DNA from: an uncultured Planctomycetaceae bacterium
Lineage (GTDB): Bacteria > Planctomycetota > Planctomycetia > Pirellulales > PALSA-1355
Direction of reading: 5' to 3'
DNA: 64,000 nucleotides
Assembly: GCA_963715755.1 (NCBI GenBank)
Contig: OY970273.1
Coordinates: 86,028 to 150,027 of the forward strand
This document shows, piece by piece, positions 4,815 to 36,895 of the stretch. Under the pieces are notes generated by a model. The model worked only from the letters and a program-made list of their open reading frames with translations. It was not told the DNA's origin and did no database searches. The translations under genes were made by a program, and so were the position numbers. How positions within the stretch are numbered: position 1 is the first letter of the stretch; every line of letters starts with the position of its first letter.

Positions 4815-5216
4815 ATGTTTGCCCGCAGATTCCAACTGATTGTCCTGGTGCTCTTCGTCGTTCTGGCGATTGGGCTGGGGACGCGCCGCGCGAGCGCTTC
4901 GTGCGGCGATTACGTGATGATCGGCGGGCATCATGCCGCCGACCACGCAGCGCCGGCGGCACCGGATGCGCCCTCGAAAGGCCCCGCCCGCGAGCAGGTG
5001 CCCTGTCCCTGCCGGGGTGCCGAGTGTTCGCGTTTGCCGGCATCGCCATCGGCACCGGCACCCGTCCGCGTCGAGCCGGGGCGCGAGAACCTGCTGGGCG
5101 CTAGTCCCATGCAGCCTGGCGCGACGCGCGGCCGCGAGAGCCTGTGCCTCGAACCGGCAAGACTCGCTTTGAGATTCTCTCCGGCGGATATCTTCCGCCC
5201 ACCGCAGTCGGCCTGA
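4815..5216 (+). CDS. hypothetical small secreted Cys/His-containing protein
   Basis: MFARRFQLIVLVLFVVLAIGLG signal/TM then HHAADH and CPCRGAEC motifs; compositionally weak, low support. Confidence 0.25.
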   Translation: MFARRFQLIVLVLFVVLAIGLGTRRASASCGDYVMIGGHHAADHAAPAAPDAPSKGPAREQVPCPCRGAECSRLPASPSAPAPVRVEPGRENLLGASPMQPGATRGRESLCLEPARLALRFSPADIFRPPQSA

Positions 5217-5504
5217 CAGGCCGGCGGATGGTCCGCTCCTGCGCTTGATCGTCGGCGATCGACGACGCGCGCGTTTGCAGCCCTGCTGGCCGAAAGCGTG
5301 CTGCTGCGGCTTGGGTTCTTGTAGTCTCCTGGCGGATGATGCGCCCTGTGGCGCGGCAGTCCGCCCGAGCGAATCCCAGTCGACCGGCAGCGCCTGACCG
5401 AGGGTGAATGCGTGCGCAGCGAGCGCGTCCCGTGGCGGACGGCCGTCTGGCGCGGGAACTGACCCAATTCATTTGCAATCTCAATTCGCGGAGATATACC
5501 GACC

Positions 5505-7568: not shown

Positions 7569-9037
<1,469 letters not shown>

Positions 9038-16949: not shown

Positions 16950-17723
<774 letters not shown>

Positions 17724-18040
17724 CGGGTCAAGCCGCCGCGGAACTACGAAAAAGAGACTGCCCTCCGGCCGCGCCCCGTCTGCGGTGGCCGGAAATCGGG
17801 CTATATGGCTTCACTCTATGTTGCCTGGGCTAGCTGGTCAACCGACCAAGGGCGGGGGCCCAGCGCCTCGCGTTCCGTTCCTGCTAAGGCGCCAGCCTGG
17901 TGGCACTGCCGCACGTCTCGGCCGGCAATTTCCAGCTTCGCGGATGTTTTGTTTGGCGCAAGCGACGCGATGTGGCCCAAGGCAGTCGGCTGTTCCAGCG
18001 TGAGACAAGTGTTCGGTCATTTAGCCGAATGTCCCATTAC

Positions 18041-18200
18041 ATCTGCGCGTATCTGCGTCCATCCCGTTTATCTGCGTCGATTGAAACTGGTCCGGCTACA
18101 AGCGCGATCGAGCGGTCTGAATTTGGACGGCCCTGCCAAGCGTGAATCCGCGACGATCGAAAAACGCAGATGAACGGGATGGACGCAGATTTTCGCAGAT
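18041..18200. repeat. imperfect inverted repeat: two 36-bp arms (4 mismatches) built from ATCTGCG motifs, 86-bp spacer
   Basis: arm1 18041-18076 atctgcgcgtatctgcgtccatcccgtttatctgcg; reverse complement of 18165-18200 is atctgcgaaaatctgcgtccatcccgttcatctgcg; between hisF 5' end and dinG-like 3' end; local G+C lower. Confidence 0.6.
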
Positions 18201-18267
18201 AGGCGAGCCGGGAAGTTCAAGTTCGCGGTGCCGAGCGCCGTGAGTGACCAATGAGCGGACACCGCCG

Positions 18268-20271
18268 CTACAACTCGAGTTGCTCGGCATCGAATTGATC
18301 TTCATCCGCCGATTCGGTCGAGAGCCGGCAGTCGGGCAGGCTTTCCAGGAATGAGCGGCCGTAGGGCTTGCTGCGCATCCGCGGATCGAGAATCACCACC
18401 AGGCCCCGGTCCCGGGCCGAGCGGATCAGCCGGCCGAAGCCCTGCTTGAGCTTCAGGATCGCCTCGGGCAATTGATAATCGGCAAACGGATTGCCCCCCG
18501 CGGCCCGGATCGCCTCGAGCCGGGCTTCGAGCAGCGGCCGGTCGGGCACGCTGAACGGCAGCTTCGTGATGATCACGTTCTGCAGGGCGTCGCCCGGCAC
18601 GTCCACGCCCTGCCAGAAACTGTCGGTGCCCATCAGCACGCCGCGCGGGTTGGCCTTGAAACGCTCGATCATCGTGCTGCGGGGCACGCCGTCGGCCTGG
18701 CAGTACAGCGCCAGATCGCGCTCGGCCAGCCAACCGGTCAGGCCCGCCGCCACGCGGCGCATCATCTCGTAACTGGTAAACAGCACGAACGCGTGCCCGT
18801 CGGTGCGGCCGGCAAATCGCTCGATCATGTCGATCGTGCGCCGCTGGTAGCGCTGGGTGTCCGAAGGGTCGGGCATGCCGTCGACCAGGATCAACTCGAC
18901 CTGCCGGGCGTAGTCGAAAGGGCTGCCCCAGCGGCGGGCCGTGGCCTGCGTCAGGCCGACCCGGCTCTTGAAGAAATCAAACGAGCCCTGGCGGCCGACG
19001 GTCAGTGTGGCGCTGGTCATAATCACGCTGGGCACCTTGCCGAACAGCTCCTTGCGGAGGGCCGGCCCCACGTCGAGCGGCGCCGCGGCCAGCGTCATGC
19101 GCAACCGGCCGCGCCGGCTGCGCGACGCATCGGCCCAGTAGACGGTGTCGGGCATCTGCTGCGTGCGCCAGGCTTCGAGCTCGGCGGCGAGCCCGGACAG
19201 CCGGTCGGCCGCCGAGATGAGATCCTGGCGCTCGATTTCGCCCAGCTTGCTGGCCGCCGAGCGCAGCAAGCCGGACAGATTCGCCAGGCCCGGGCTGAGC
19301 CGGTTCAGCCCGACGACCGTGCCCGGCGCCCGGGCGCTGGCCTTGCCCTGCCGGGCCAGCCAGGCGTGGGCGTCGGCGAAGAACTCTTCGGCCAGGTGCC
19401 GGCAATGATCGACGCTCCGCTGGGCATCGCCGAGGTGGTGATGGACCAGCAAGCCGCGATTGGTGCGGTCGTTGTAGAGCTTGGAGAGCAGGTAATCGAC
19501 CTGGCCGCTCGAGGCGCTGGCGCCCAGGTGATCGCTGGCCACGGCTTCGAGCGTATGGGCTTCGTCGAAGATCACGGCCCCGTAGTCGGGCAGAATGCTC
19601 ACGCCCTCGCGGCGCAGGGCCAGATCGCTGAAGAACAGGGCATGGTTGACGACCAGCAGCTGGGCGTGCTGCACGCGGCGCCGGGCCGAGTAGTAGAAGC
19701 ATTCCTTGTAGGTCGGACATTTGCGCCCCAGGCAGTTGCCGCTGTCGCTTTGCACTTCGTCCCAGACGGTCGAGAGCGGCTGATGCTCCAGGTCCGTCAG
19801 CGAGCCGTCCTGGGTGTTGCGCGACCAATCGATCACGTCGGCCAGATCGGCAAATTCTTCTTCGCGGTGGAACAGGCTGGCCGCCCGCTCGGCGGCGCCC
19901 TGCATGCGTCGCAAGCTGACATAGTTGTGCCGCCCCTTGACCAGCACGGCCGTGAACTCGCAAGGCATCACGCTGCGCAGCAAGGGTAAGTCCTTGTGGA
20001 TCAGCTGTTCCTGCAGGCTGATCGTATGCGTCGAGATGACGATCCGCTTGGGCAGGGCTTCGCTCGACTCGGCCACCGCCAGGATGGCAGGCACGAGGTA
20101 GGCAAAACTCTTGCCCACGCCGGTACCGGCCTCGGCGATCAGGTGCTGGTGTCCGTTGAGCGCGGCGGCGACCGCATCGGCCATTTCGAGCTGTTCGCGG
20201 CGCTGCTCGTAGTGGTCGAGCCGGGCGGCAATCCGGCCGGTGGGTCCCAGAATTTCGGCGGGCGTGAGCAT
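18268..20271 (-). CDS. DinG/Rad3-family ATP-dependent DNA helicase
   Basis: [16 protein letters not shown] Walker A, DEAHTLE box, Cys cluster region; ATG at 20271 ([10 protein letters not shown]). Confidence 0.8.
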
Positions 20272-35272: not shown

Positions 35273-36895
35273 ATGCCTAAAGTTGTCATTCTCGATACGC
35301 TGGCCCCCGAGGGGCTGGAAATCCTGTCCAAAGCGCCCGGCATGCAGTGCGAAGTGCGCACGGGACTGAAAGGGGACGCCCTGCGCTCGACGCTGGCCGA
35401 GTTCGACGGCGCCATCTGCCGCAGCGGCGTCAAGATCACCGCCGACGCGCTCGAAGGCAACCGCCGCCTGAAGGCCATCGTGCGGGCCGGAGTGGGCACC
35501 GACAATATCGATTCGCGGGCGGCCACGCGGCTGGGCATCGTGGTCATGAACACGCCGGCCGGCAACACGCTGAGCACGGCCGAACACACGCTGGCCATGA
35601 TGCTGGCCCTGTCGCGCAATATCGCCCCGGCCTATCAGAGCCTGATCGAGGGCAAATGGGACCGCAATCGCTACATGGGCACCCAGCTGGCCGACAAGAC
35701 GCTGGGCGTCGTCGGCCTGGGACGCATCGGGCAGGCCGTCGCCGCCCGGGCCCGGGCGCTGGAAATGAAAGTGATCGGCTACGACCCGTTCTTGTCGCGC
35801 GAACGGGCCCTGGAGCTGGGCATCGAATTGGTGCCCAAGGTGGACGACATGATCGAGCATATCGACTATCTCACGGTCCACACGCCGCTGACCGACGAAA
35901 CCCGGCACTTGATCAGCACGCCGCAGATCCAGCGGATGCGCAAGGGGGCCCGGCTGATCAACTGTGCCCGGGGCGGCATTTATGACGAGGCCGCGCTGGT
36001 CGAAGGGCTTAAGAGCGGTAAGCTAGGCGGCGTCGCGCTCGACGTTTACGCCAGCGAGCCCTGCACGAACAGCCCGCTGTTCGGCATGCCGGGCGTCCTC
36101 TGCACGCCCCACTTGGGCGCCAGCACCGAAGAGGCCCAGACGCAGGTGGCCGTCGAAGGCGCCAACTTGCTCGTCGATTATCTGACCAACGGCACGATCC
36201 GCCACGCCGTGAATTTCACGCCGATCGACGCCCAGGCGCTGGGCGATCTGCGCGGCTATCTGGACGTGGGCTACCGGCTGGGGCTGATGCTGGCCCAATT
36301 CGACACCGCTTCGATCCGCCGCTGCACGCTCAACTATCGGGGCGAAGTGGCCGGCAAGAACACCCGGCTGATCACCGCCGCCTTTGCCGCCGGGCTGCTC
36401 TCGAACGCCTTGGAACAGTCGATCAACATCGTCAATGCCGAAGTGCTCTTGCGCGAGCGCGGGATCGAGCTGGTCGAGCAAACCCGGGCCGACTTGGGAG
36501 CGTTCAGCTCGATCGTTTCGGCCGAAGTCACCACCGAGTCCTGCACGCGCAGGGCGGCGGCCACCGTCTTCGGCACGGGCATGCCGCGACTGGTGCAGTT
36601 GGACGGCTATCCGCTGGACGCCTACCTGGACGGGGTGCTGATGGTTTTCGGCCACCGCGACGTGCCCGGCATCATCGGCGCCGTGGGCACGATTTTCGGC
36701 CGGCATGAGGTGAATATCGCCCAGATGGCAGTGGGCCGGGCCAGCAAGGGAGGCGATGCCGTGGGCGTGCTGAACCTGGACGTGCGCCCGCCCCAAGCCG
36801 CGCTGGACGAAGTCCGGGCCCATCCGGCAATCCAGCGGGCCGTCGTGATCAAGCTGCCCCCGGCCGGCGAGCGTCCTCCGTGGTTGGCGGGCTGA
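35273..36895 (+). CDS. serA: D-3-phosphoglycerate dehydrogenase SerA with C-terminal ACT domain
   Basis: GVVGLGRIGQAVA NAD-binding motif, catalytic His/Glu region, ~540 aa long form. Confidence 0.9.
   Translation: MPKVVILDTLAPEGLEILSKAPGMQCEVRTGLKGDALRSTLAEFDGAICRSGVKITADALEGNRRLKAIVRAGVGTDNIDSRAATRLGIVVMNTPAGNTLSTAEHTLAMMLALSRNIAPAYQSLIEGKWDRNRYMGTQLADKTLGVVGLGRIGQAVAARARALEMKVIGYDPFLSRERALELGIELVPKVDDMIEHIDYLTVHTPLTDETRHLISTPQIQRMRKGARLINCARGGIYDEAALVEGLKSGKLGGVALDVYASEPCTNSPLFGMPGVLCTPHLGASTEEAQTQVAVEGANLLVDYLTNGTIRHAVNFTPIDAQALGDLRGYLDVGYRLGLMLAQFDTASIRRCTLNYRGEVAGKNTRLITAAFAAGLLSNALEQSINIVNAEVLLRERGIELVEQTRADLGAFSSIVSAEVTTESCTRRAAATVFGTGMPRLVQLDGYPLDAYLDGVLMVFGHRDVPGIIGAVGTIFGRHEVNIAQMAVGRASKGGDAVGVLNLDVRPPQAALDEVRAHPAIQRAVVIKLPPAGERPPWLAG

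Follow-up and report, generated by a model that had tools for sequence, protein, structure and literature searches.

Short direct sub-repeats, phased by about one helical turn within each inverted end, are known from the TnsB sites of Tn7, the ends of Mu and the hexamers of Ac/Ds. The attC sites recombined in integrons are delimited by boxes of the form R'' (RYYYAAC) and R' (GTTRRRY). Among dispersed intergenic repeats, those of the REP type are marked by a GTAG or CGTC tag (PMC3733652). Finally, intervening sequences (IVS) in the 23S rRNA of Leptospira and Coxiella consist of terminal inverted repeats which form a 28-bp stem around a small ORF and are excised by RNase III (PMC4990558). Here, we analysed a palindrome with a total length of about 160 bp, located between the genes for a DinG-like helicase and for HisF in a stretch of Planctomycetaceae DNA of 64,000 nucleotides (hereafter the window). 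Judging from sequence similarity, this palindrome very probably belongs to a family of heptamer-repeat arms in PVC bacteria. Literature searches, by sequence strings as well as on REP in PVC bacteria, on invertons and on GxxExxY/PF13366, did not turn up the motif.

The palindrome between dinG and hisF

The first-pass annotation of this locus had pointed to two inverted arms, 86 bp apart, between hisF and the helicase gene. A repeat finder confirms them as arms of 37 nt each (18041-18077 and 18164-18200), which are 89% complementary and lie 86 nt apart. Arm 1 shows the pyrimidine-rich orientation on the plus strand, ATCTGCG-cgt-ATCTGCGTCCATCCCGTTT-ATCTGCG-T; arm 2 carries the same motif on the minus strand, and the plus strand there reads purine-rich ACGCAGATGAACGGGATGGACGCAGATTTTCGCAGAT. 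The three ATCTGCG heptamers previously assigned to each arm are all exact, at 18041, 18051 and 18070 on the plus strand and at 18165, 18184 and 18194 on the minus strand. They are spaced by 10 and 19 nt and represent six of the 15 occurrences of this heptamer in the window. Each arm contains one copy of the core 18-mer ATCTGCGTCCATCCCGTT (18051-18068, plus strand; 18173-18190, minus strand), which also served as the seed for finding the family in public genomes. The window has no other copy, and only 0.04 occurrences would be expected in it even with three mismatches allowed. No further arms or heptamer clusters were found elsewhere in the 64 kb. The 86-nt spacer between the arms (18078-18163) contains an additional heptamer-like ATCCGCG at 18146, as well as the 11-mer TTTGGACGGCC (18122-18132, plus strand), 30 nt ahead of the AAC end of arm 2. 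At the identical distance of 30 nt, this 11-mer also precedes both purine arms of another Planctomycetaceae locus (L056), outside these arms.

An interrupted stem of 40 bp (7+26+7 bp) is predicted for the palindrome on either strand, with 7 bp contributed by the two ends of the spacer (18077-18083 and 18154-18160). The predicted energy of this hairpin is -85 to -88 kcal/mol as RNA (z about -6.7) and -52 kcal/mol as DNA (z -6.3), and none of 200 shuffled sequences folded as well in either case. A single window arm has no self-complementarity and carries no GTAG/CGTC tag. The GC content at 18000-18199 is 0.535 as compared with about 0.65-0.70 in the flanks, which bears out the locally AT-richer stretch already noticed here, between the dinG stop and the hisF start. 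The sequences immediately beside the palindrome (...ttac and aggc...) show no target-site duplication.

The two flanking genes, hisF (16950-17723, minus strand; His_biosynth, 2e-84) and dinG (18268-20271, minus strand; Helicase_C_2 and DEAD_2), are separated by 544 nt. The longest dinG ORF extends to 20385 and would encode 705 aa, as against 667 aa for an identical database protein; since this protein is 667 aa long, the start codon is probably Met39 at 20271. Read in the direction of both genes, the palindrome begins 68 nt after the dinG stop and ends 318 nt before the hisF ATG. Outside the element, hisF is preceded by a promoter-like site, TTGACC-N17-TAGAGT followed by GAAG (17813-17841, minus strand). 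This was the only promoter detected by our scan, which found none in the spacer of the palindrome.

The helicase places the source organism in the Pirellulales, and the locus was compared with relatives. In two of them (L059 and L062), DinG is 74-77% identical and the dinG-hisF synteny is kept; the promoter-like site is also kept, as TTGACC-N17-TAAAGT-GAAG, and its distance to the hisF ATG is about 90-170 nt. The distance from the dinG stop to the -35 box of hisF is about 48 nt in both relatives versus about 427 nt in the window, so that some 380 nt, including the palindrome, are extra in the window lineage (17880-18265, boundaries approximate). In the two closest relatives (84% identity), another gene follows dinG. 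We conclude with high confidence that a block of about 380 nt with the two arms was inserted into a short dinG-hisF spacer, leaving the hisF promoter unchanged.

A structured RNA in the 5' UTR of hisF or at the 3' end of dinG had been proposed for this locus. The first alternative fails if the promoter at 17841-17813 is used, as the palindrome is located upstream of it, about 200 nt away. A hairpin in the 3' UTR of dinG is possible, but it is accompanied by neither a U-tract nor an Rfam match. On the dinG strand, the stem is followed by gtaatggg, and no terminator-like site was detected in 17600-18400. We thus rejected the reading of the palindrome as an intrinsic terminator, in line with the initial impression that the feature goes beyond a simple terminator. 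Rfam 15 gave no match at gathering score in the window and nothing relevant in 17650-18350 at E<=10; eight loci of the family described below matched only plant miRNA hairpin models, below threshold. There are no rRNA genes in the window.

One could nevertheless imagine a functional RNA hairpin of another type. Read-through transcription from dinG would produce a stem of about 40 bp that could be processed by RNase III or stabilise the 3' end, and in this way keep dinG and hisF transcripts apart. The very stable fold predicted for both strands and the location shortly after the dinG stop are in keeping with this scenario. Two further arguments in its favour are the precedent of the rRNA IVS, whose 28-bp terminal stem around an ORF leads to excision by RNase III (PMC4990558), and the presence of related cassettes inside operons (queC-queD, hisS-aspS), where RNA processing would make sense. 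However, we found neither a U-tract, a terminator-like site nor an Rfam family, close syntenic relatives exist without the element, and the arms of the family conserve their sequence and not their pairing (see below). Altogether, we consider a functional RNA hairpin unlikely.

A repeat family in Verrucomicrobiota and Planctomycetota

The family was searched by an exact scan for the core 18-mer in one genome per species (about 185,000 representative genomes, 596 Gb). This returned 57 loci. The extended motif yTCATCyCTTCC-ATCTGCGTCCATCCCGTTCATCTG(C/T)GGTT-raa is common to all 49 loci that we assign to the family; the remaining eight are scattered in unrelated taxa and lack the extension, compared with a chance expectation of about 17 for an 18-mer in 596 Gb. 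The 49 loci are distributed over about 36 assemblies, 31 from Verrucomicrobiota and five from Planctomycetota-labelled MAGs, with only one to four exact copies of the 18-mer per assembly. Besides these five MAGs, the hosts are Haloferula, Luteolibacter, Akkermansiaceae and Verrucomicrobiaceae. At one locus from an Akkermansia-labelled MAG (L054, 6508-6552, minus strand), we noticed a match to the Acido-Lenti-1 sRNA of 36.2 bits, against a gathering score of 37 bits.

The family arm (consensus ATCTGCGTCCATCCCGTTCATCTGYGGTT) is asymmetric and about 29-38 nt long. It is composed of three sub-repeats of about 9.5 nt, each of which starts with ATC: ATCTGCGTCC, ATCCCGTTC and ATCTGCGGTT. Both window arms match a profile built from 44 family sequences (E=2e-8 for arm 1 and E=3e-9 for arm 2) and are 96-100% identical over 28 nt to an arm in L037. 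Arm 1 is moreover 87% identical over 38 nt to positions 5364-5401 of L056, including the third heptamer. Planctomycete arms, those of the window among them, end in ...ATCTGCGTT or ...GCGTC, not in GCGGTT, and can contain extra heptamers. An arm subfamily with a longer outer extension, GGTTGAAAAAATCCAAA, is present at five loci (L019, L020, L026, L038 and L048), where the conservation of the arm thus continues past GGTT.

More elaborate arrangements were observed at two loci. In Haloferula chungangensis (L025, 780-1580), four tandem units of about 210 bp are located between a MatE gene and a gene for a small membrane protein; in each unit, about 72 nt separate a purine arm from the pyrimidine arm that follows, and a linker of about 76 nt completes the unit. 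In the Planctomycetaceae MAG with L056, two repeats of about 400 bp (5015-5415 and 7597-8000) each include a palindrome, about 240 bp long, with densely packed CGCAGAT/CACAGAT heptamers. Between these two repeats lies an array of small paralogous ORFs, which start with MTRPRFRFGLRT.

A profile search of the fetched loci revealed that most arms have an inverted partner and that about one third of the loci are single-arm. In all 33 inverted pairs outside the window, 28 of which are without indels, the purine arm (ttcAACCGCAGATGAACGGGATGGACGCAGAT) comes first and the GGTT ends face outward. The window pair shows the reverse order, with the pyrimidine arm first, then 86 nt, then the purine arm. 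This reversed order is otherwise only encountered at the junctions between the tandem units of L025, across linkers of 75-76 nt. The placement of TTTGGACGGCC shared with L056 is a hint that two truncated units may meet in the window pair. We also looked for decayed partner arms that would turn the window into two canonical units, and the candidates were not significant (p = 0.12 to 0.99). The spacers of the family pairs measure 28-178 nt, or about 400 nt in the seven loci where a gene is enclosed; those of gene-less pairs are unrelated in sequence, even inside one genome.

The genomic contexts of the family are very diverse. Pairs are tightly intergenic; the genes on either side are in tandem in about 20 cases, convergent in about 8 and divergent in about 6, and their products belong to diverse housekeeping Pfam families with no common regulon. 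The arms are co-oriented with the adjacent gene in 35 cases and anti-oriented in 36; for single arms, the proportion is about 8 to 7. The occurrence of the arms in all gene arrangements and orientations, beside diverse neighbours, is incompatible with a function as promoter or terminator of specific genes, and on the same counts we rejected the possibility that single arms are promoters. The first-pass annotation had also suggested a pair of operator sites for a dimeric or tetrameric regulator that loops DNA. Such a role in the control of hisF or dinG now appears unlikely, as arms lie next to dozens of unrelated genes in all orientations, relatives with the same synteny have none, and the conserved hisF promoter is located about 200 nt from the palindrome.

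A more general variant of this idea would be an array for a host DNA-binding protein, either a regulator or a nucleoid or architectural protein, which would contact the heptamers on one helix face, bridge the two arms, and in so doing regulate the neighbours or organise the DNA. The heptamer distances of 10 and 19 nt would suit such a protein, as would the conservation of the arms at the nucleotide level without compensatory change and a motif conserved across phyla in few copies per genome. However, the neighbours share neither a regulon nor an orientation and belong to diverse Pfam families, and the presence of the exact core in only about 36 of about 185,000 representative genomes argues against a core host function. 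In addition, the relatives keep the hisF promoter without any array, and the tight coupling of the arms to the ends of GxxExxY genes, described in the next section, is better explained by a cassette. A host-protein array therefore seems quite unlikely to us.

We did not detect any transposase, integrase or recombinase among 52 flanking ORFs at family loci, nor any enriched target-site duplication at 28 family pairs. BLAST searches of plasmids and phages and two scans of viral contigs yielded no family member, the two 18-mer matches obtained being due to chance. A scan of metagenome contigs with a Planctomycete-type 20-mer likewise yielded no family member and only chance matches in coding sequence.

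The arms could also be imagined as recombination sites at which a site-specific invertase turns round the 86-nt spacer, or a promoter located in it, and conserved inverted repeats around short variable segments at many intergenic loci would fit this idea. However, spacer orientation does not differ between the orthologous loci L012 and L034, nor between L029 and L030, and many spacers measure only 28-75 nt; furthermore, no recombinase gene adjoins the family loci, pairs are also present between convergent genes, and the window spacer contains no detectable promoter. To our knowledge, spacers of 28-75 nt are shorter than known invertible segments. We regard an invertible segment as very improbable.

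Recombination of the integron type has even less in its favour. The outer ends of the Verrucomicrobia pairs, (A/T)TTCAAC...GTTGAA(A/T), do resemble the R'' and R' boxes of attC sites. However, arms of the window and other Planctomycetes end in GCGTCG, GCGTTT or GCGTTC, with no RRRY, and the window arms have no GTTRRRY. Neither cassette arrays nor an integrase were found near any family locus, the GxxExxY gene is enclosed by one pair and does not separate successive sites, and many arms pair fully, with no bulged bases. That the arms are attC-like sites is, in our opinion, extremely improbable.

GxxExxY cassettes and constraint on the arms

The pairs with spacers of about 400 nt enclose a gene of about 135 aa whose product matches TIGR04256 'GxxExxY protein' and PF13366, of the PD-(D/E)xK superfamily (E down to 3e-37). 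GxxExxY genes bracketed by family arms were found in three unrelated contexts: hisS-aspS, queC-queD (L082) and phosphoribosyltransferase-pgi (L076). Gene and arms are closely interlocked. The purine arm contains the start codon (CAG ATG AAC GGG ATG GAC GCA GAT), and the stop codon precedes the pyrimidine arm by a few bases; the N-terminus encoded by the arm, MNGMDAD, MNAD or MDAD, is present in 106 of the 120 closest GxxExxY homologues. One GxxExxY subfamily has 3,247 homologues at E<=1e-10. Searching the PDB by sequence gave no match for the GxxExxY family, nor did a defence-system library contain one.

When nine hisS-aspS cassettes from nine genomes are aligned, the arms prove nearly invariant whereas third codon positions and outer flanks vary freely. 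The arms of these cassettes are thus under stronger constraint at the nucleotide level than the coding sequence. An identical GxxExxY protein is encoded at hisS-aspS in 24 of 24 contigs. Recent transposition of this protein was not seen, all 24 contigs being hisS-aspS, and the hisS-aspS cassette is stably inherited and not visibly mobile.

The other two contexts show some peculiarities. In L082 (2440-2975), the cassette is part of a queuosine-biosynthesis cluster, queF-queC-[cassette]-queD-GTP cyclohydrolase, with arms only about 15 nt from the flanking genes. In L076 (2915-3080), three tandem partial ends of pyrimidine arms, ..CATCTGTGGTT, ..CATTCATCTGCGGTTT and ..CCATCTGTGGTT, follow the GxxExxY stop and are separated by AAAAACCTCCCAGCCCC repeats. 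We also noticed a GxxExxY gene of another subfamily (L030, 4700-5260) inside a different imperfect inverted repeat, TTTAAACGGAGGATGCGGAGGAGACGGAGAGAACGGAG ... CTCCGTTACTTCCGTGTCCTCAGTTACCTCCGTTTTAAAA, built of phased purine-rich sub-repeats of the ACGGAG type. From this one example, bracketing by inverted repeats made of phased sub-repeats may be general for GxxExxY genes.

No GxxExxY gene or remnant was found in the 64-kb window, in the 8-kb Planctomycete loci or in the gene-less pairs, which means that the link to the nuclease rests on Verrucomicrobia. A tblastn match at 36041-36205 was rejected as a GxxExxY remnant, being antisense within an ORF of 540 aa.

The pattern of variation in the arms bears on what has been conserved. 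Among partner arms that the seed had not picked out, nearly all differences are C/T transitions at six fixed positions, and these arms share the invariant pattern ATC.G.GT..ATCC.GT..ATCTG.GGTT. A single core position varies freely, with 8 TT, 14 CC and 5 mixed pairs. Variation between paired arms of the family is mostly uncompensated. At hisS-aspS, for instance, the variable position of the purine arm is A in four loci, and in three of these the pyrimidine arm has retained C, leaving an A-C mismatch. The similarity of the flanks is no higher for arms within a pair than for arms of different pairs, so that we rejected a co-evolving stem. These transitions at fixed positions, together with the uncompensated variation of the pairs, favour sequence recognition over the maintenance of a stem. 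The A-C mismatches, the flanks and the single-arm loci also weigh against a functional RNA hairpin. We infer that each arm would be the recognition site of a sequence-specific factor, for which the nuclease-fold GxxExxY protein of the cassette itself is an obvious candidate and, most plausibly, the right one.

The reading that best accounts for the locus, and to which we give about an even chance, is that the palindrome is a gene-less and atypically arranged member of a conserved Planctomycete/Verrucomicrobia repeat family tied to GxxExxY genes, of a selfish or cassette type. Against it stand the reversed arm order of the window, the absence of GxxExxY genes and remnants from the window and the Planctomycete loci, the lack of a target-site duplication, the unrelated spacers of gene-less pairs, the stable inheritance of the hisS-aspS cassette, the few exact copies per assembly and the outcome of the metagenome scan. 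As to the mechanism, we have moderate confidence in a selfish cassette whose arms would be recognised by a protein. In this model, the arms would be bound sequence-specifically, most plausibly by the putative GxxExxY nuclease, and the family would persist or spread as a selfish cassette with gene-less derivatives. The window copy would have no dedicated role in the control of hisF or dinG, and RNA read through from dinG could fold into the 40-bp stem and become a potential substrate of RNase III.

It is tempting to go one step further and to suggest, more tentatively, a cross-phylum class of small cassettes. The GxxExxY gene would start in one arm, its stop would abut the inverted partner, the cassettes would sit among housekeeping genes and even within operons, and gene-less palindromes such as that of the window would be derivatives or decoys. 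The nuclease would recognise its own arms, possibly for homing, maintenance or self-repression by 5'-3' pairing. This is a speculative proposal that we think is rather more likely to be wrong than right. If true, it would provide a first testable function for the very large and uncharacterised GxxExxY family. The subfamily bracketed by arms offers both a ligand to test, arm DNA or RNA, and a model of a selfish nuclease cassette. For annotation purposes, the palindrome should not be read as an operator of hisF or dinG or as a riboswitch-like RNA.

Comparison with known systems

Miniature inverted-repeat elements (MITEs) such as Correia, ERIC and RUP resemble the window element in several respects: it is about 160 bp long (<600 bp), has terminal inverted repeats of 37 nt, is intergenic and AT-richer, and is present or absent among relatives. 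A MITE-like remnant was indeed the closest of the three readings offered by the first-pass annotation, in that the arms are part of an inverted-repeat family scattered over many loci and syntenic relatives lack the block. Unlike a classical MITE, however, the element shows no target-site duplication, the spacers are unrelated, with no shared internal sequence, and no transposase or related transposase-bearing IS was found at the family loci; the family arms are furthermore under purifying selection at orthologous sites. Phased sub-repeats within inverted ends recall the subterminal transposase-binding sites of Tn7 (TnsB), Mu and Ac/Ds, although no such transposase, cargo or TG/CA termini were found at the family elements.

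The family is also reminiscent of the REP/REPIN-RAYT system, in which intergenic inverted doublets are dispersed and a coding member is bracketed by the repeats while gene-less doublets are located elsewhere. In contrast to REP sequences, a single family arm is not a hairpin and carries no GTAG/CGTC tag, and the bracketed gene encodes PF13366 and not a Y1/HUH transposase. The copy number of the family is also apparently low and the spacers of its doublets are unrelated.

We file the element under none of rRNA IVS, REP/REPIN, MITE, attC or intrinsic terminator, because their defining features are absent from it: location in rRNA for the first, a tagged REP hairpin with a Y1 transposase for the second, a target-site duplication and shared core for the third. 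We regard it instead as a putative palindromic selfish cassette. In terms of architecture, its closest analogue appears to be the rRNA IVS. These are located inside 23S rRNA helices, whereas the family elements are intergenic between protein-coding genes, dinG and hisF in the case of the window copy. The IVS ORF encodes a four-helix bundle (S23p) and the family ORF a PD-(D/E)xK GxxExxY protein. The family arms, built of heptamer sub-repeats, are conserved in sequence across phyla, and the stem that they are predicted to form may be a substrate of RNase III. Nevertheless, both kinds of element combine a stem of about 28-40 bp with a small ORF of unknown function and exist in ORF-less versions, and the IVS, too, are regarded as selfish and possibly once mobile.
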